Shown in pieces: positions 3,801 through 59,344 of a stretch of DNA of 64,000 nt (positions are counted from its first letter, which is position 1; each line of letters begins with the position of its first letter). The stretch is from positions 123,690,001-123,754,000 of the forward strand of contig OX597814.1 of the NCBI GenBank assembly GCA_951406725.2, written 5' to 3'. Origin of the DNA: Octopus vulgaris (lineage: Eukaryota). Under the pieces are notes generated by a model. The model saw only the letters and a list, made by a program, of their open reading frames with translations. It was not told the origin of the DNA and did not search any database. The position numbers and the translations under genes are program-made.

Positions 3801-6800
3801 AGTTATTGTAGAACTGACTGGTGCCAATGATCTGGTAATCGGAGTAAAATAGAATAGAATATGATGAAAATTTGGAATGTATGATGGAGGGTGAGATAGC
3901 AATGCAGTGGGGAAAATGAAATAGTTTATTGTAAAAACATTACATATTAATAGGACATGGTGCTTATGAGAAACAACTATTATATGCCTGTAGTTGGTGA
4001 CATAAAACAAATGTCACTTGTATGACAAGCTTATTTACAACTATCATGATGTCTAGACAAGGGCACACAAAAACACACATATACATAAACATACGACAGA
4101 CTTCTTTCAGTTTCCATGTAATAAGTCTACCCACAAGGTCTTGCGCAGCGGGTTTGATCCTGAGGCCACATGACTGGGAAGCTTGTCAATCACACAGCCA
4201 TGCCTGTGCCTATGCAAGTATCATGACCATTATTTACATTGGATGGATATGTGTCCTCATCTCGTTTGTTGTTACCACAACGTTTCGGCTGACTTACTCT
4301 CCAGCCTTCATCAGATGTCCTGGGAGAATTTTGAACCCAACCCTGGGTTCTCATTCTTAAGGTATTTTTTGCTGATGCTATTATTATTATTATTATTATT
4401 TATACAAAGCAGTGCCTGGAACTGAACTCACAATTTTGGGGTTAGTAGCCCGCGCTCTTAGCCATTACGCTATATGCCCACGGGCACATAGTATAATCCC
4501 GATCAATTCCAAGCAGTGGAAGGAAGGAAGGGAGGGAATAAATGAATAATAATAATAACAACAATATCAGCAGTAAAAAAATACCTTAGGAATGAGAACC
4601 CAGGGTTGGGTTCAAAATTCTACCAGGACACCCAATGAAGGCTGGAGAGTAAACCAGCCGAAATGTGGTAACAAAAAACAAGATGAGGACACACATCCGT
4701 CCAATGTAAATAATGTACAGAATTCCTAATCTAAAATGTAGAATAGTATCGTGAAATCATTAAGGTGAAACTTACCGCATGGTTACACCACATGTTATGG
4801 CCCCTCTGTTCCGAATCTAACTCATCATTTAAGTCAACACAAGTCAGTGAGGAGGCCTAAATGAAAACAAAACAATACAGAGTAATAAGCTATATGACTT
4901 GTCTTTAGCAAACATTGAAATAATGAATCTACAGTCACGAAACCAGCACTTCAACCTCACAGACATTGTAGCAGAGATTCACTAGTTTTAGAGCTTTGAT
5001 AACTAATAACTGGCATTCAGTTGGTTATGACGAGGATTCCAGTTGATCCAATCAATGGAACACCCTGCTCATGGAATTAATATGTAAGCACTAGTGTAGC
5101 TAGAGTGTGTGCTGCCCCAGGGTGGCCCTTATATTTGCCACCCCTGCACCCCACAAAAAACACATATTGCCTACAGTAGACCCAAAAGTGCCACCCAGGA
5201 CAGACTGCCCTGCACCAGCTACACAAGTACATGTAAGTGGCTGAGCACTCCACAGATATGTGCACCCTTAATGTAGTTCTCAGGGAGATTCGGTGTGACA
5301 TGGAATGTGACAAGGCTGGTCCTTTGAATTACAGGTACAACTCATTCTTGCCAACTGAGTGAACTGGAGCAATGTGAAATAAAGTGTCTTGCTCAAGGGC
5401 AAAATGCACTACCAGATATTGAACTCATGACCTTATGATTATGAGCTGAATACCCTAACCACTTAGCCATGCTTTGATGATGATTAGTTGAAAATGGTTT
5501 AGTGGGTTTGTTTGTGGAGTGTTTTGAACATCTCTGGAGCATGCAAGGAATACGGTTTACACTATGATTGTCTGTACATTGTAATGTATAAAATTGCAAT
5601 ACCCTACAATTACTTTTTAAAGTTATCTCTACTGATTTTCTATAGAAACTAGAGCTAGTACTGGAAGTTACAATGTTTCACAGATGAATATCATCATCAT
5701 TTTAACGTCTGTTGTCCATGCTGGCATGAGTCGGATGGTTTGACTGAGCTGGTACACTGGAAGGCTGCGCCAGGCTCCAGTCTGATTTGGCATGGTTTTC
5801 TACAGCTGGATGTCCTTCCTAATGCCAACCTTCTGTACAGTTATCATGGGACAAAACAAAGAAACATTAGATGTAGTGTTTCTCTTACATGTAACCGTGA
5901 ATATTTTTTTTATATTTCTTTGTTTCTTTTAATCATAGATGAAGGAGGAGTGATAGATTCTATAACATTTGCAGACCATCTCACATCAGTGAGAAGTTCA
6001 CATCTTGAACTTCTGTGGAGATAATGTGAACGAGGAATGAATTCCAGAGGACTGCAATTCTGGAGAAGGTTAATGGGGAAGTGATTAATTTAAGTTTCAC
6101 AAGTGAGATACAGTAGAGGTGATGAGAAGTTATTGATTAGGTCCAGGTGAGCCCTAATTAATAGGTTTATGATCAAAAGCATTCTAGCCATCATCTTTTT
6201 TTATATATTCAAGCATTGTATATTTAATACAGATATCAAATGTCTTAGATATCAATATGTTTAAGATGGTAGGGTGGGATGGGTAGGGTTAAGTGAAATT
6301 TGGCTGCTATTTCTGGTAAGTTGAGTGACCACATAAAGAGGTCAATGCATTAGGTGGGCTTGAGTGAAAGAGGTGGTCCATGACTTGCTAGTTCAGAATA
6401 AAAAAATAGCCATTATTCTAGTGGTAAAAGAATTGGAGAGAAAATATAGCTCATCTGAGAGCTAGTGGTGTATTTGAGAATGAGTCCTTACCAATCAGCT
6501 CCATGTATAAAATGTATGTCTAACACTACCTGGGATAAAATTGTGTATATGACAGCCGAACTATTGCAGATATGTTTGAATATGATTGTAGCTTCGCATG
6601 GTATATAGTTATAATTAAGTGGTGTGGACTGTTGAGATTTGATTGAATTGACAAGGGACACATCACTGACCTTTCGAATGTTGAGTGATTCAGTACTCTA
6701 ACAATTCAGTCATTTGTGACCCCTATTTGGTTTCTTATGTTGATTCCTTAATTAAATTCATAAAATTCACACACAAAACAAAAAAAAAAAACATTCCATT

Positions 6801-18002: not shown

Positions 18003-21000
18003 GTAAGTATTTGTGAATGCGAACAGCATTTGTTTCTACTCCTCGGATGGGCCCGTAACAAACCCCAGCCTACTTTAGGCTCGAATTATTAAACTAATTT
18101 CAACTATAAACATACTTTTTAAGGTTCGCTACTGTTTCACCTCTATTACCCTTGTTGTTTTCCTTAACATTTATCTACTCCCCCTCTCTCTTTTCCTATT
18201 TATTTATTGTGTCAATTGTCTTTCTCTTTTTACATATCTGTCTGGCAACTCTCTCTCTCTCTCTCTACTTACCTGTCAGTTCTCTCTTTCTTGTCTGTCT
18301 CCTTTATCTGTCTTTCTATCTATTTTTTCTTTGCTATATTATTGAACTTTCATTTCTACAGTCCATTTTAATCTCTCTCTTTCTGTCCTAATGTACTTTA
18401 TTAGTGATTTGTAACTGTTAACCTAACTTGGTATCACTACTATCTGTGCTTGTGCACATCTGTGTGCTGTGTATGTGCCTTCAAAAGGTTAGTGTGATGC
18501 CAAGACAATGCAAAAACCCTTCATCTACTCACAACACCTACATCTATATCTGACCACCACACAGTCACCAAACACCTTTTATTTTTTTGCCCCTCTTAAA
18601 CCCAGCCTCTGCAAAAACTATCAACAACTCCGCACCTATCGGATCATCAGACAGACAGTGGTATAATCATCACTGCTTACGACATGTCTATCAATCACAT
18701 AACAGCTATCGGATTGTAAAGCATTTCACATTAACTTAATGGTCGGGAGCACCACTAGTTTTCCATTAACTATCCCAAATGTACTCCAGATTAATTTGAG
18801 ACAGTTAATCAGTTAAGCATTGAAATTTCCCTTTGCTTCACATTTCTCGAACAATCAAAGCCTAATCCTAACTCACAAGTGGTCTACATACATTGGCATA
18901 AAGCATTGTTGGAGAAGAACATGGTTTACAACACCTGGCAAAATTCATTCATTTCCAGCAACTGGATGGCTTTCATCCACTACCACAACTTCCGTGAGAT
19001 GACTATCCATTAGTAAAAAATACCTTCATGCAAGCTTCAGACAGTAAGCTCCCCAGCGTCCCCAATTGCAGTCAGGCCTCTTGGTCTTTTACCAAAAGAA
19101 TCTCTACAACTTTGTAAGAATCCCTTTGCCTGTTGTTCCTGAACCATGATGGCCCTGTAAGTTGTACTCCTGTAAAGAAAGTTTCCTGTTAGACTACTTG
19201 ATTTGAACTTAAACCCTGACACATATTCTGTTCATTCTGGTGGACCTTAAGGTTTAGCATGTTCCTCTCTAGACTCTTCTTGTACATTAATAATCTCTTA
19301 GCTGTCACTTCTAACTCTGTTCTTTCCTCTGCAGGTAATACTGTAATGGGAGTTGTCTTCCCTTATGTTTTATAACCCCAAACACATATGCACAGAGTTG
19401 AATAAAACGTTTACTGTTTCCATCTTCAGAATTGTTATAATATGTTGCTAAGATACCGTTTATGAACTGCAATACACAGCTGTAACATGGTGTCAGAAAT
19501 TTTAACCACATCAGAATACTAGCTTTATTAACTTGTATCACATGTGTTCATGGTTGATTAGTGCAAAGCTAAGGGACTCTTCTTGAAATAATTGACTGTA
19601 GTCTAACAAATATTAATAAGTATCCGAATATCAGTTCCTATCTCATTTACTAGTGCTAACAAGTGGCATCTCTTGAGAAAGGATCTTACACAATTTTTGG
19701 TAACTGTTCAGAAGGACGAGCCAGCTGATATTGTGCTGCTGCTGCTGCTACTACTACTACTACTACTACTACTGAAAGAAGTAAAGCTATTGTCTATTTC
19801 ATATATAAGGAAGTCCTTAGGATAAATATGTAAATATAGATAGCAAAGAAAACTTGACACTTTCTATGCACCTAGAATTAATCACTTTAATTCTAAAGAC
19901 TGGTTCCTCACTACCAAACAAAATGGTACAAATATTGAATATTTGACAAAACGAAAAAAACAAAAAAAGCAAACACATATGTAAGTTTAATGATTTGAGT
20001 GATACATTCACCCTTGGTCTCTAGGATATTTCTTTAATATGCAAACTCATCTTTACCTGGTTAAAGCTGTAGCCATTGTATGAAGACCTGTGGAGATCAG
20101 AGCAGTGGTAATGCCACAGAAATCCATGTAGTGGTAACACTACACCTGTTAATAAGTGTGTCAGTAATCTCAAATGTTTTAAAAACAAAGGTAGCAGATA
20201 TGCAAAAAGTGCAGTGGTGATCGCAAAGAAAGAACATTGCAAATGCCAACAAGCTGTTTTAAATGATGGAGTGACATCATTATATAATGTCCCTTTTCCC
20301 ATGCTGGCCTGGGTTAGATGGTTTGATATGAATTGATGGGTCAGAGGGCTGTCCTGTGCTCCAGTGCTTGCTTTGGCATAGCTTTCACAGCTGGATTCCT
20401 TTCCTAACACCAGCCATTTCACAGGTGCTGTTTTTGTGGTCCCAGTGTTGGTGAGTTTATCAAGTACCTGCAAAACAAGATCCCTCAACTGAGAGGGGGA
20501 AAGTAAGAAAACTCAGTTGTGTACTTCATCATCATCATCATCATCGTTTAACATCCGTTTTCCATGCTAGTATGGGTTGGACGGTTTGACCAGGGTCTGG
20601 GAAGCCAGGAGGCTGCAACAGGCTCCAGTCTGATCTGGCAGTGTTTCTACAGCTGGATTCCCTTCCTAACGCCAACCACTCCGTGAGTGTAGTGGGTGCT
20701 TTTTACATGCCACCAGCACAGGAGCCAAGGGAGGCTGGCAACGACCATGATCAGTTGGTGCTTTTTACGTGCCACCGACACGGAAGCTAGTCAAGGCGGC
20801 GCTGGCATCGGCCACATTCGGATGGTGTTTTTACATGCCATGTAAAATATTTTGGACGTTTTATAAACAGAGAAGACCTATTAAACACTATAATTTTGTT
20901 CATCCTGCTTTACAACTAGCCACTGATTGCAGGCACATTAACATAGTTGACTAAGTTTATTTTTCATCTGCCAGAGGTGAGTGAATGTCTGAGAAAGTTT

Positions 21001-24000
21001 ACAGAACAATTATTCATCGTCATCATCATCATCATTTAACATCCATTTTCTATGTCGGCATGGTTGGATGGCTTGATAGGAACTGGTAAGGCTAGGGGTC
21101 ACACCAGCCTCCATTGTCTGTTTTGGTATGGTTTCTATGGCTGGATGCCCTTCCTAACACTAACTGCTCCACAAAGTGTACTGGATACTTTTTAATGTGG
21201 CACCATCACCAGTACTTTTTGTGTAACACCTTGGTTTTAGGACCTCAGTTCTGTTGTGGTGCACTGGTCTTCTCCAGTACAGTAATGTGCTACATATCTC
21301 AGTCCTCTGTCATCTCCTTTGTAAGATTCAACATTTTGAGATTGGCCTTCAATACTTCATCCCATGTCTTCCTGGGTCTCCCACTTCCATAACTTCCTTC
21401 CACTTTAAATGATTGGCATGTCTTTATGCAACTGTCCTCATCCACCTGCATCACATGGCCAAACAAGTGCAGTCTTCTCTCTTGCATGCTGCATCTAATT
21501 CCCCTTATGCCCAACTTCTCTCTCAATGCATCAATGCTCTGTTGCTTATGCACACTGACATCGCACATCCAGTGGAGCATACCAGCTTTGTTCCTCTCTA
21601 GCCTTTGCATGTCCTCTGCAATCAGAGCCCACATCTCATTACTCTGCAGCATTGCAGTTCATACACATGCATCATACAATCTTACCTTCACTCGAAGAGA
21701 GAGAGAGAGAGTGCTTTGGTTGCCAACAGAGGTAAAAGCTTCTGGACTTTTTCTACCTTATTCTAATTCTAGCAATTACACTTTGTGTACAATCTCCTCC
21801 ACTGCTAAACAGGTCACCTAGGTAGCAAAAGTTATCTACAACTCCCACCAGAAGAGCCAGTAGGACCCAGAAAGCCGAGTGCATAGCAATGGACAGACAT
21901 ACAGCAGGAAAAAGTCTGGTGCAGGCTTCGGCCTGGCTGGCTTTTGTGGTACCATCCCACCCATGCTAGCATGGAACACGGATGTTAAATGATGATGATG
22001 AGATACTAGGAATATCATGGTATTCTCAATCACTTAGAATATGATAAATTCCTACCACTAAGAGAAAGGTAGTTCCCAGTCTGTAGAACAATGAATATAG
22101 TAGTTAGTTTCCAGCCACTGATAATGTGACAGCTAATTTTTGGCAACTAGGAATATGGTCCTTAATTCCAAGCCAAGCAATTGTACTTTTAAGAATGTTT
22201 TTAGTCACAACTGGAACATAAGTCACCAAGAATATTACTAGTATATTCTTTAGTTTTCTGATTTCAGTTAAAGGACTTCTGCTATATTGGAACACTATCT
22301 GCAAAAGTTTTAGTCAATAATATCAACCACTCCCCATTACTGGGTCTTGTACTATTTTATCAATATCTTTCAAATAATGGCTCACCATATTGAGTTACGC
22401 CCCTTCATTGAATTAGGTTTCTTTAGAGACGTATGTCACACAATGTTCACAGACATGCAATGTATTGCATTACCTTACATTGCTAATACTGTATTTCCAT
22501 ACATACATGCATATACACTTACATTCAGTTTTATTTCTACAGCACACATTGATAAACATTGCAGTGTGTGTGTGTGTGTATCATCATCATCATCATCATT
22601 CAGTGTCCGTTTTCCATGCTAGCATGGGTTGGACGATTCAACTGGGGTCTGTGAAGCCAGAAGGCTGCATCAGGCCCAGTCTGATCTGGCAGTGTTTCTA
22701 CGGCTGGATGCCCTTCCTAACGCCAACCACTCCGTGAGTGTAGTGGGTGCTTTTTACATGCCACTCGCACAGGTGCCAGACGGAGCTGGCAAACGGCCAC
22801 GAACGGATGGTGCTTTTATGTGCCACCGGCACGGGGGCCAGGCGAGGCTGGCAACGGACACGAACGGATGGTGCTTTTACGTGCCACCCGCACGGGGGCC
22901 AGGCGAGGCTGGCAACGGACACGAACGGATGGTGCTTTTACGTGCTACCGGCACGGAGGCCAGTCGGGGCGGCACTGGCAACGGCCACGAACGGATGGTG
23001 CTTTTTACGTGCCACCGGCACGGGGGCCAGGCGAGGCTGGCAACGGCCACGAACGGATGGTGCTTTTTACGTGTCATCAGCACAGAGGCTAGTCGGGGCA
23101 GCGCTGGTAACGGCCACAATCGGATGGTTCGCTTACTTGTCACCGGCACTGGTATCACAGCCGCAATTTCCATTGATGTTGATCGACTTCGATTTTGGTT
23201 CTGTTTCTGATATCTGATTTGATTTTGATTTTCACTTGCCTCAACGGGTCTTCACAAGTGGAGTTTTGTGTCCCAAGAAGGAAAGGTATGTATAAGTCGA
23301 CTGGCTACATACCAGGTAGAGGCCACGGGTTATGGTCTCACTAGTCTTGCCGGGTCTTCTCACGCACAGCATACTTCCATAGGTCGTGTGTATATATATA
23401 TATATATATATATCATCATCATCGTTTAATGTCCATTTTCCATGCTAGCATGGGTTGGATGGTTCGACCGGGGTCTGGGAAGCCAGGAGGCTGCACCAGA
23501 CTCCAATCTGATCTGGCAGTGTTTCTATAGCTGGATGCCCTTCCTAATGCCAACCATTCTATGAGTGTAGTGGGTGCTTTTTATGTGCCACCGGCACAGG
23601 GGCCAAGGCAGGCTGGCAACAGCCATGATCGGTTGGTGCTTTTTACATGCCACTGGCACGGAAGCCAGTCAAGGCGGTGCTGGTATCAGCCACATTCGGA
23701 TGGTGCTTTTTACGTGCCACTGGCACAGGTATCACAACTACAAATTCCATTTGATTTTTATTTTGATGTTAATGTACTTGACTCAATAGGTATATATATA
23801 TATATGTATGTATGTATGTGTGTGTGTGTGTGTGTATATATATAAATCTTTAGTTAAATATATTCAATGAGAATATTATATACTAAATTTATATTGAGTG
23901 CTCTATTGTATCAAAGTATTAATACTATTAAAGTATTTATATATTTAATACAAGCGATTATATATTTGGGCATCCAGCTGTAGAAACACTGCCAGATAAG

Positions 24001-27000
24001 ACAGGAGCCTGGTGCAGCCTTCTGGCTTCCCAGATCCCCGGTCGAACCGTCCAACCCATGCTAGCATGGAGAACGGACGTTAAACGATGATGATGATGAT
24101 ATATATATATATATATATGTATATGTATATAAAGTCATCTGTATGTGTATGACAACTAATTTTTGGCAACTACAAATTTGGTCCCTAACTCCATGCCAAA
24201 CAATTGTACATTTAAGCTGAAGTGCCTCTAAGAATATGGTTAGTTACAAGAGAAACATAAGTAACCTAAAATATTACTAGTATATTCTTTATATTCTTTA
24301 GTATGAAGGGTACTGAAAAGTTCCTGGCTTTGGGTAAAAGAAAACACTGGAGGATCAGTTAATTATGATTTTATTCAACATATCCCCTCAGATTCACATA
24401 CTTATTGCAGTGGTCCTTCAGTTTTTCTCACTCCTTCAAAAGAACTTGGAACGTTAGGCCCCCAACCAAACCTTTGACGATACCCTTAAAGTCAGGAACT
24501 TCTCAGCATCCCCTTGTATATATGCATGAGTAGAGAGATAGAACAATCTTGTATACTGTTTCTCATTTACCAGACTTCACTTCCGAGCTTTTGGTCAACC
24601 TAAGGCTATAGTAGAAGACATTCAAAGCACTGCATTGTGGGATTGGATCTGGATCCATGTAGTTGTGGATGTAAATGATAAATGCCAAGTTGAAAAGTGC
24701 AATGTTCATGGTGGAAGAAAAATCAAGGAAGATGTGGGAAGAAATGGTGTGATTTGAAAAAAGTGGATGTTAAAATGATGATAATGATGTGTACCATGAT
24801 TATTTGTAATTTTTTACTTCTTACTCTTTTAGGCATTGTAAGATGCAGCATTTGGTTGAGATGAAGCTGAGAATGGATGAAGCAATGGCCATATTATCTA
24901 CTCTTGGGGGTGGATATTCTGCCTTAGGAGAGTATTATGAAAATCATGTATGCATTTGATTTTAACTTAGAGTTCAAATATGTTAATGATATTTAAATTT
25001 ATAATGTGAATTAATTAATCTGATATACATCTTCATATACAAAAGTGACATGTACTTTGGCACAAGACCTATTTTAAATAACAATTTTATTTTATTTCGT
25101 CTTTGGATTTGGTTTGCAAGATTCTTTATATGAGTTTGTGTTTTGAAGCATAATCTGTTGTGTCTGGGGAGAGTCATTTTCTTTTTGTGTCTTATAATGT
25201 AACATACTGCAAGACGCAACGAACATTTTAGGAAAATAAAAATAAGAAATAAGTGGAAATTTTATCTGTGAGTGTGTTACATTATAAGGCACAAAAAGAA
25301 AATGACTCTCCCCAGACACAACAGAATTTTATTTTAGAGAATATTTAAAATACAGATATTTTAAAGAATGCAGTAATGTAGTTTTAGACATGTTGTTATT
25401 TTGTAGACTGGCTCATGGCATCATTTAACTCTTTAGCATTCAAATTATTCTGTTAAATGTAATGTTTATCTATTCTGCAATTGGAACCCATGCTGGTGGT
25501 ACATAAAAAGCACCCATTACACTCATGGCGTAGTTGGTGTTAAGAAAGAAACCATGCTAAATCAAATTGGAACCTGGTCTAGCCCTCTAGCTTACCAGTT
25601 TCAGTCAAACCGTCTAACCCATGCCAGCATAGAAAGCAGATGGTAAATGATGATGAATTTGTTTTGATCTAATCATGCGTTATCTTGTAGCTTCAAGATT
25701 TCAATGATGTGATTGTATATTTTTGAATGACATTGTAGGGTAGGTGCAAAAGGCTAGATGTAGCTGATTTGAACACAAAACAGGTTGAATATTTAGGCTT
25801 GATGTGGCCAGTTTAAATGCTAAAAGGTTAAATTTCTTTAATTCTAATGTTTCAAAATCAAATTATATTTTCTACTTTTCAAAAACTTATTAGTATTATT
25901 ATATTATTGTTTAGAGTCTTATTCTTGTAATTTCACATCATTGTTATTTCTTCTTTGGAAATAATTATTTAATAATCTTATTTCTAATTAAGTGTAACTC
26001 TGATTTTGTCTTCTCAACAGTCTTTGGAAGCTTTCAACATTGCTGTAAAACAACTGCAAATTGCATTGAAATCTACCGATCCACTGAGTGTTTCCCGCTG
26101 CTATCTCTACATTGCACTCAGTCTTATGCAACGAGGCTATCTTCATTGTTCACGTGCCATAATCAGGTAACATCAGACACTTATCAGAGTTTTCTGTTGT
26201 CCACTTGTTGGATGGTTTGACTGGGCTGGCACGCTGGAAGGCTGTGCCATGCTCCATTCTGATTTGGCAGGGTTTTCTGTGGTTGGATGTCCAACCACTC
26301 CAAGAGTGTAATGGGTGCTTTTATGTGCCATTGGTACAGATGCCATTTGTGTGACTGTGGTATGTTTATGTGCTATTGGCATGGGTGCCAATTTGTGTGA
26401 CTCTGGTATCTACCAAGACTGCGATTTTGCTTGGCTTGATGGGTCTTCTCAAGCATGGCTTAATGCCAAAGGTCTTGGTCATTGCCTCATGAATGACAAT
26501 ATAATAAATTATGATGTATCAAATGTGGGATGCTCAGTAACTGAACGATTTTTAGCCTTTTAAGGGTTTGTACTGGGTCACCTTCACCTCAGAACGTTAT
26601 ATCTAAGTCACTTCATCAAAGATTGGTTCTCATCTGCCTCTTGTTTATCACAGTCTTTCAGGCTATAACAAAGGAATTTAAGACTGGTTCTCCATATGAG
26701 CTCCTCTATGCTGATGACTTTGTTCTTATAGCTGAATATCTACTAGAATTAGAGAAGAAATTTTAGGTGTGGAAACAAGATCTAGAATCAAAGGGCTTTT
26801 GAGTTAATTTAGCAAAGACCAAAGTCCAAAGCAGACAAATCACCAATTCCTTCAGGGATATGGCCTCTGCTTGACATGTAGAAAAGGTGTAGGTAGGAAC
26901 TCCATACTGTGTTCCCAGTGCAAGTTTTGGACACATAAGAGATGCTGTGGAATCCCAGGAAGGTTACCACATAAAGTTTCTATGTGGAAGATGTAATGGT

Positions 27001-57419: not shown

Positions 57420-57491
<72 letters not shown>

Positions 57492-59344
57492 GTTTAACGT
57501 CCGTTTTCCATGCTAGTATGTGTTGGACAGTTCGACCGGGGTCTGGGAAGCCAGGAGGCTGCACCAGGCTCCAGTCTGATCTGGCAGTGTTTCTACAGCT
57601 GAATGCCCTTCGTAACACCAACCACTCCGTGAGTGTAGTGGGTGCTTTTTACGTGCCACCGGCACAGGTGAGGCTGGCAACGGCCACGATTGGTTGGTGC
57701 TTTTTATGTGTCACTGGTACAGAAGCCAGTCAAGGCGGCACTGGCATCAGCCACGTTCAGATGGTGCTTTTTACGTGCCACTGGCACAGGTATCACAACT
57801 ACAATTTCCATTTGATTTTTTGATGTTGAGAGAAGGGGAGAAAGGGAGACTAACAGAGAGAAAGGAAGAGAAGGTACGATATTATTTTGCATATGTGCGT
57901 TCAAATCACAAGCACAATCAAAATGTTTAACATAGTGAAACAATGTCATGAAGATTTATAAATTCTTTATTTCCTTCTTTTGTTTGGATTTCATTTCATA
58001 CTGTCAATGAATGATTTTCATTTGTTAATTATTTATTAAACCAACTGAACACATTATAAATTATAGCAGTTAATTTCAAAGAAACAGAAAAAGAAAGTGG
58101 GATGTTGAGCAGCAGAAGATAGAGGTGGAGGGAGTAATAGGTCTTACACTTCAGAACAAATGGTGTACTCAGATATACTGAGAGATAGTTAAATTAAAGG
58201 GAAATAACCTCAGCAAATAGCTATGGATGATACACTTTTATCTTTTACATATTCCAGACCAAAAGTTGTTGCCATGCTGGGGCATGCCATTATCAATATA
58301 TTTTTTGTTATTTGGTTTAAATACTTACGGGTATTAAGAGAGTAGAGAGATACAAAATGGAATGCAGATATGAGAGTTAATTAGCCAGCTGTCTGGCTCA
58401 CTAGATAGATAAATAGGTATGTAGGTGAGTCTATAGATATATATGTAAGGTGGCTGGTGTTAGGAAGGGCATCCAACTATAAAAACCCTGCCAAAATAGA
58501 CAGTGAAACCTGGTGCAAACATCTGCCAAGACAGCCCCTGTTAAACTGTCCAACTCATGCCAGCATGGAAAAAGGATGTAATAGGTGAACTGAACTGAAA
58601 TGAAAAGAAATGGGAAAAAATGAAAAAAAATCTCAATTGGTAAATTACTGTGACTGAGCCTTGGTGGGGCTGGATAGCGAAAAGTGTAGTTTTATATATA
58701 TATATATTGATTTGGCTCCAATCTCTGCCAAATCAAGATTGGAGCCTGGTGCAGCCATCTGGTTCGCTAGCCTTCAGTCAAACCCGTCCAACCCATGCTA
58801 GCATGGAAAGCAGACGTTAAATGATGATGATGATGATGATGACGATGATGATCATCGTCATCGTTTAATGTCCGTTTTCCATGCTGGCATGGGTCGGATG
58901 GTTTGACTGGGGATTGGCAAACCAGGAGGCTGCACCAGGCTCTAATCTGATCTGGCAATGCTTCTACAGCCGGATGTCCTTCCTAATGCCAACCACTCCG
59001 AGAGTGTAGTGTGTACTTTTTACTTGCCACCAACAAAAGAGCCAGTCAGGTGGTACTGGCATCGGCCATGTTCAGATGGTGCTTTTTATGTGCCACCGGC
59101 ATGAATAAGTTGTTTTATCTTTTTAATTCATCTTTTATTTCCTTAAATTAAAAACCACATCATATCTGTCAAACATATTAAGAAATGAAAAATAAGCAAT
59201 GGCTTCTAAGTTCATTTCAATTATATTTAAAAGTGCAGCTTTGATTAAATGACAGGATTTCAAAAGAATATTTTGAAATTCCTTGCTTGTGTTTAATATA
59301 ACATGTTTTAAAATAAGCTGAATATCCACAGGTCCTGCTAGTTA

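Follow-up and report, generated by a model that had tools for sequence, protein, structure and literature searches.

A tRNA-Arg-like segment in the pseudo-LTR of an octopus Penelope/Poseidon retrotransposon as a putative Pol III promoter

Penelope-like elements (PLEs) are known to insert as inverted copies that bear a tail on one side, with TSDs of 9-10 bp and palindromic junctions (PMC8557442, PMC3846280; here and below, papers are cited from the part of their text that was available). For the anole element PAc, a PLE tail of 30-40 bp has been tied to two internal RT start sites, and in vitro PAc nicks both target strands and primes two cDNAs at these sites; the PAc hammerhead depends on protein, and insertion in vitro does not require it (PMC11167929). 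The promoters described for Penelope/Poseidon elements in these papers are of the Pol II type, with TATA/Inr and DPE (PMC11167929, PMC3846280). The octopus family reported here resembles PAc (PMC11167929) and the Adineta element Pen2a (PMC3846280) in its single ORF of about 835-840 aa with an RT and a C-terminal endonuclease, in a pLTR that includes the ORF start, in a hammerhead at that start, in two 3' ends about 30 nt apart, and in inverted 5'-truncated copies with a 9-10 bp TSD and a palindrome at the inverted junction. Unlike PAc and Pen2a as presented in those sections, it has a spacer made up mostly of a tRNA-Arg-like segment with A and B boxes and an (AAT)n tract, its copies start at this segment, and its coding strand has no runs of four T (T4).

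The nearest precedents are the Schistosoma repeats with a Pol III promoter and a hammerhead (review PMC6765202) and the TRIMp3 elements Cassandra, Helenus and Ajax (PMC10886601). The Schistosoma repeats, Sm-alpha and Sj-alpha, are likewise short retroposons, but they are non-coding and carry canonical hammerheads, whereas the octopus unit serves as end repeat to a coding element, its minimal hammerhead lying within the ORF. The TRIMp3 elements also carry a small-RNA-derived Pol III promoter in a terminal repeat, placed there probably by SINE capture (PMC10886601); these LTR elements measure 0.3-1.3 kb and are non-autonomous, whereas the PLE whose pseudo-LTR holds the octopus segment is autonomous and 2.7 kb long. 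Comparable short units, bearing a hammerhead or derived from a pLTR and moved by PLE proteins, are the non-LTR retrozymes and non-autonomous PLEs, among them MRC1 (PMC7229834, 10.64898/2026.07.22.740005, PMC8557442), but the available parts of these sources describe no tRNA head, and retrozymes form tandem arrays, whereas the octopus copies are dispersed singles or inverted pairs. We rejected assignment to the non-LTR retrozymes because the copies are single or inverted and derived from a coding unit, not head-to-tail tandems. An octopus repeat annotation reports 190 Penelope-like families, with no tRNA-promoter detail in its available text (PMC13282606). We found no description of a tRNA-derived promoter in a pLTR in the full-text literature; Repbase, Dfam, subscription papers and bioRxiv supplements lay outside this search and may hold the family. 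Ohshima and Okada reportedly described, in 1994, octopus tRNA-derived SINEs with tRNA-derived heads; the octopus PLE family has no conserved central domain between the head and the AAT tract.

The window analyzed here is a 64,000-nt stretch of the Octopus vulgaris genome (contig OX597814.1, positions 123,690,001 to 123,754,000). It contains, from 4228 to about 4748, an inverted repeat consisting of two head-to-head pLTR arms, 85-92% complementary, from a decayed Penelope/Poseidon retrotransposon (Table 1).

Table 1. Features of the inverted Penelope insert (window positions; pt, source available in part).
Feature	Position	Strand	Remarks
Left copy of likely 10-bp TSD	4217..4226	+	9/10 identical to 4745-4754
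Left arm, first ~42 codons of Penelope ORF (ATG at 4354)	4228..4354	-	Stops at 'short' 3' site (~ORF +120-129)
Minimal type I hammerhead motif within ORF start	4274..4319	-	Core 4314-4279; layout as in PMC4209133 (pt)
(AAT)n tract and ~22-nt leader upstream of ATG	4355..4404	-	
tRNA-Arg-like head, part of pLTR	4405..4479	-	A box 4472-4462, B-box-like motif 4427-4419
Head-to-head junction (dyad)	4470..4491	.	Centred on native micro-palindrome TGCCC-AY-GGGCA
Right arm: internally deleted head, (GGAA)-type filler, AAT tract, leader	4482..4591	+	Aligned to A-type head
Right arm ORF start (ATG 4592)	4592..4748	+	Ends at 'long' 3' site
Right copy of likely TSD	4745..4754	+	First 4 nt shared with element end

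The earlier note on this DNA had pointed out the minus-strand head with its A box and AAT tract, the hammerhead core with a perfect 5-bp helix II, a weak helix I and a palindromic AACGTT in place of helix III, and the dyad at the head start, all of which we recovered in the sequence; the hammerhead also has an extra nucleotide after A9. Rfam and ARAGORN called no tRNA or hammerhead in the insert. The proposed B-box-like motif is present, and its sequence here (GTTCAGTTC) is not the one that most of the family has (GTTCAATTC/GTTCGATTC). The inverted second tail was likewise real, with its broken CCAATGA core (at 4632, CGT deleted), but its extent had been given as 4545-4715, whereas the right arm begins at 4482 and continues to about 4748. 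This plus-strand arm is the longer one, reaching 33 nt past the extent of the left arm, and positions 4716-4748 form its ~33-nt Penelope tail. Both arms translate to the N-terminus of the Penelope ORF, and the copy belongs to the smaller of two subfamilies (A). The suggested TSD, AGTATC(A/G)TGA at 4217 and 4745, is likely, given its identity at nine of ten positions and the family-wide TSDs reported below, and scored 7, just below our cut-off of 8. The micro-palindrome at the junction occurs also in uninverted, ORF-linked copies. The arrangement of the insert is textbook Penelope, and the copy is dead and, by structure, an ordinary Penelope insertion. Other parts of the window (20526-20840, 22580-23150, 23412-23770, 57465-57827 and others) hold abundant dispersed repeats unrelated to the Penelope family, probably other SINEs. 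Near-perfect foldbacks at 25157-25322 and 58774-58909, with arms of about 40 and 55 bp, are MITE-like or inverted SINE pairs, and Rfam miRNA matches there were below threshold.

Head and tail together are almost certainly the pLTR of a Penelope/Poseidon retrotransposon. Several copies, from both subfamilies, share the end of a Penelope RT-endonuclease ORF as the sequence that precedes the head. We examined 30 RT-anchored loci, including the query locus and one near-identical duplicate, and in 21 of the 22 that reach the ORF end the head lies 29 nt past the stop. The 'tail' runs in frame into the ORF and corresponds to its first 120-160 coding nucleotides. The repeat unit is ordered ORF, 29 nt, 75-nt head, (AAT)n, 22 nt and ATG, so that the head is integral to the autonomous element, between the stop of one ORF and the ATG of the next. 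The earlier attribution to Penelope machinery was therefore right, and the tail does match an autonomous Penelope, as the coding start of its ORF and not as a borrowed end. The proposed fusion of a SINE head to a PLE tail had to be abandoned, because the head occupies the spacer between two ORFs and the tail is protein-coding.

The consensus ORF is uninterrupted and encodes 835 aa (2,508 nt of a 2,634-nt unit), with a match to RVT_1 (E 1.5e-7). Its 81 relatives carry PF26215, mostly together with PF00078, and three of the 81 carry PF01541 (GIY-YIG); some of the relatives are 52-67% identical. An 836-aa relative from Anolis carolinensis shares 33% identity over 98% of a 300-aa query, and the endonuclease region of the consensus can be aligned with this Anolis protein through the YxIPCSCG core (27% identity, E 1e-23), with no direct match of that region to Pfam GIY-YIG (0 families). 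The Neptune-type Cys linker is absent from the consensus ORF, and the pLTR derives from partial tandems and includes the ORF start, as in PLEs. These features place the family among the EN+ PLEs, in the Penelope/Poseidon clade. A full copy (L326) consists of head, whole ORF and head and is 90% identical to the consensus; two others (L321 and L322) carry long ORF stretches and likewise start at the head. Since the copies are about 7-10% diverged from the consensus and no intact ORF was found among those examined, the family is probably inactive. We had also considered an abundant Pfam GIY-YIG family as the partner, which was rejected with a tail match in 0 of 20 loci and reused as a control. 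Loci L401-L403, L067 and L072 represent a second PLE family, which is younger, has many ORFs of 781 aa still intact and carries a Cys linker of the Neptune type; the hammerhead pattern was not found near its 3' end.

We searched the genome (2.8 Gb, 227 contigs) with an exact hammerhead pattern, which gave 3,693 matches versus none with the reversed control, and with a looser pattern, which gave 6,049 versus 2, indicating at least 6,049 hammerhead-bearing arms. Sister families were sought with the looser pattern, and the first 100 of the 6,049 matches all belonged to the Penelope/tRNA-head family. The linkage of head and tail, which the earlier note had proposed checking, was upheld: 20 of 29 other tail-anchored loci had a head match, and 28 of 29 head-anchored loci carried the tail, so that no free-standing parent SINE was found. 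The dominant subfamily is B; head and tail subtypes agreed in all 38 scorable cases, the A and B boxes of the subfamilies differ at degenerate positions of the box consensus, and the subfamily indel in the tail preserves the reading frame. Five 5'-truncated copies (L002, L022, L024, L091 and L099) lie within (AAT)n tails of unrelated LINEs, which suggests joining via AAT microhomology or a target preference.

The insertion signature was examined in 87 hammerhead-anchored loci, whose 3' ends were bimodal, at ORF +120-130 (45 loci) and +151-165 (36 loci), giving two sites about 30-35 nt apart. Among 88 inverted pairs, 80 combined one long and one short arm, five had two short arms and three were intermediate, in keeping with the inverted partial copy that had been recognized as PLE-like. 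TSD-like repeats scoring at least 8 were found at 54 of the 88 pairs versus 13 of 309 mismatched controls; the TSDs are real family-wide. The family thus shows the inverted 5'-truncated copy, the 30-40 bp tail at one end and the short TSD of PLEs.

The consensus hammerhead also belongs with the PLEs. Its core is intact, answering a check that had been proposed, with the extra nucleotide after A9 lying between 9 and 10.1, a G10.1-C11.1 pair and a palindromic 15.2-16.2; helix I has 5 bp in subfamily B and is weaker in A and in the window copy. The layout matches, as far as sequence can indicate, the minimal PLE type by the criteria available from PMC4209133, in agreement with the type originally suggested. 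Rfam made no hammerhead call. Among 84 copies chosen without regard to the core, 36 had it intact, and it was conserved no better than its flanks, as expected of neutrally decaying copies. The catalytic dimer was not formed in the cofold MFE of either of two sequences tried, which is a prediction and not a measure of activity.

The unusual part of the family is its promoter region; the structure is otherwise that of an ordinary Penelope. The consensus head is identical to genomic tRNA-Arg genes at 49-51 of 75 positions (z 7-8 versus shuffles), tRNA-Arg being the best among 27 distinct genomic tRNAs in a comparison of 30 tRNA loci that did not include tRNA-Arg(ACG). A degenerate-pattern search for the parent tRNA gave no match. 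The head carries A and B boxes, as do tRNA-derived heads of the SINE2 type, does not fold as a cloverleaf and received no tRNA call from ARAGORN or Rfam. A separate SINE2 family distinct from its autonomous partner was rejected, head and tail both being parts of the autonomous element.

The 5' ends of the copies cluster at the head start. The head was linked in 41 of the 87 hammerhead-anchored loci, the other 46 starting in the AAT tract or the ORF part, and the 41 head-linked 5' ends fell inside the head (12), at -17 to +4 (23) or farther upstream (6). Copies that reach the tRNA start therefore begin there in 23 of 29 cases, and the number of 5' stops per 100 nt at risk was 6.5 at the head start, 0.62 within the head and 0.30 upstream; these calls were automated, some internally deleted copies were misclassed, and part of the -17 to +4 window reflects the native palindrome. 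This palindrome is a confounder that could itself cause stops or template switching. By eye, about six copies (L089, L194, L195, L196, L209 and L215) start at -7 to +4 next to unrelated sequence and are not inverted. In a set of 30 loci anchored in the 5' region of the ORF, two begin at the head start and one inside the head, so a start at the head is not common to all long templates. Three loci of this set are contiguous with the end of a previous ORF, so multimeric templates exist; these fit terminator-free read-through, and also Pol II. Seven of the 30 long copies (L262, L269, L270, L272, L275, L277 and L280) begin at ORF +109 to +113, near the short 3' site, as if each spanned one unit between successive RT start sites on a circular or tandem template.

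Pol III normally makes short non-coding RNAs and is terminated by four or more T. The consensus ORF and the whole 2,634-nt unit contain no TTTT run, where 2.8-4.5 were expected (P = 0.025 by synonymous shuffle, 0.014 mononucleotide, 0.027 codon, and 0.005 with Phe codons pooled), in a post hoc test on one family with modest P, a low expectation and subfamily A present in fragments only. Four control retroelement ORF families (31 ORFs from 33 loci) had T4 counts of 13, 9, 3 and 7 versus 9.4, 7.2, 1.8 and 7.9 expected, above expectation in three of the four. Decayed copies of the octopus family contained 0.37 T4/kb over 144 kb versus 1.95-5.3 in the controls. RNA-seq on L326 (three raw runs and one contig set) was unstranded, 70-74% of the raw reads continued into unlike sequence, and depth tracked copy number, embedded copies dominating the signal. 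The A/B-box head, the 5' ends at its start and the missing TTTT lend indirect support to the probable Pol III promoter that the earlier note had proposed. We rate the use of the head by Pol III as rather likely, and transcription of the coding element by Pol III likewise, as inferred from these features. Against this, an uncapped Pol III mRNA would need an unexplained route of translation, and the B box of the window copy is off-consensus.

We favour, as the probable full explanation, a Penelope with a tRNA-derived Pol III promoter in its pLTR. Transcription by Pol III would begin a little upstream of the tRNA-like segment and, for want of a terminator, would continue across the ORF and on into the next pLTR. 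The RT-endonuclease would then nick the target on either strand and start two cDNAs at two internal sites, as PAc does in vitro, and these cDNAs would join at their 5' ends, often via the native palindrome at the RNA start, to leave the dyad. Solo pLTRs would also give short SINE-like RNAs, and the short copies may have behaved like SINEs if they came from such short Pol III transcripts of the pLTR. We give about even chances to the most far-reaching form of this explanation, in which an autonomous Penelope captured a tRNA-derived Pol III promoter in its pLTR, purged TTTT from its whole 2.6-kb unit, relied on Pol III for an RT mRNA whose translation dispensed with a normal cap, and spawned thousands of SINE-like copies from the same promoter, a LINE-like element and its SINE being one sequence.

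The dominance of short copies (six of the 87 hammerhead-anchored loci reach farther than 17 nt beyond the head on its upstream side) and the start of most long copies elsewhere than at the head would also follow if Pol III made only short pLTR RNAs, moved in trans like SINEs, with the coding RNA made by Pol II from the pLTR or a host promoter. Such a division has parallels in the available sources, in the TATA-less, LINE-like internal promoter of D. virilis Penelope (PMC2377424) and in the argument that the autonomous elements partnering Pol III TRIMs have to depend on Pol II (PMC10886601). It leaves the absence of T4 across the whole ORF unexplained, however, and L326, L321 and L322 contain long ORF stretches yet start at the head, while a spacer of 29 + 75 nt, AAT and 22 nt leaves little room for a second promoter; we consider it unlikely, although it is the strongest of the alternatives. 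We find it more doubtful still that the tRNA-like segment is no promoter at all, being instead a passenger or a processing signal (an RNase P-type cut, or an RT that stops or switches template at the palindrome) carried by Pol II RNA that is multimeric or arises by read-through, with the missing TTTT due to chance in an A-rich ORF. The native palindrome sits exactly where the 5' ends cluster, inverted PLE junctions are known to be palindromic where no tRNA is involved (PMC3846280, in part), and multimeric templates are present, all of which would suit a passenger or signal; the roughly six uninverted copies with unrelated flank begin at -7 to +4 nonetheless, the control families show no T4 depletion, and a head that neither folds as a cloverleaf nor is called a tRNA argues against RNase P.

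Most copies do look like head, AAT and tail, and some 5'-truncated ones do occupy AAT tails of unrelated LINEs, as would be expected of an independent chimeric SINE with a tRNA head and a PLE-derived tail, or of a PLE end nested by chance in the AAT tail of a SINE. This origin is very improbable, given a head directly downstream of the PLE ORF at 21 of 22 junctions in both subfamilies, an indel in the tail that keeps the frame, and head and tail subtypes agreeing in 38 of 38 cases; the head-tail linkage, together with the junction and subtype counts, excludes chance nesting.

The insert lies in a ZCCHC8-like gene on the minus strand (PSP, E 6e-11; zinc knuckle, E 0.03, under its cut-off), consistent with the host gene named earlier; the note had put an exon donor about 30 nt away, and a donor-like GTAAG lies on the minus strand at 4775, a distance of 27 nt from the element. 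The two arms fold into a single hairpin (-305 kcal/mol, z = -25, 0 of 100 shuffles as good), as had been anticipated, and the hammerhead core is predicted to be buried inside this long hairpin in the host pre-mRNA. The sole likely effect of the window copy is an intronic RNA duplex of about 170 bp near the donor-like site. With this duplex beside the site at 4775, ADAR editing and altered splicing are candidate effects on the ZCCHC8-like gene.

The octopus family offers a handle on the open question of how PLE inverted repeats form. The predominance of pairs with one long and one short arm fits two cDNAs primed on opposite target strands at the two internal sites known from PAc (PMC11167929). 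Thousands of family copies could be annotated as SINEs. If the favoured explanation of a Penelope with a Pol III promoter in its pLTR is true, such SINE-like elements would have arisen without a chimera, the end repeat of the PLE being its own Pol III gene, and the family would represent a protein-coding retrotransposon expressed by Pol III, which PMC10886601, in the part available, holds to be impossible from transcript length.
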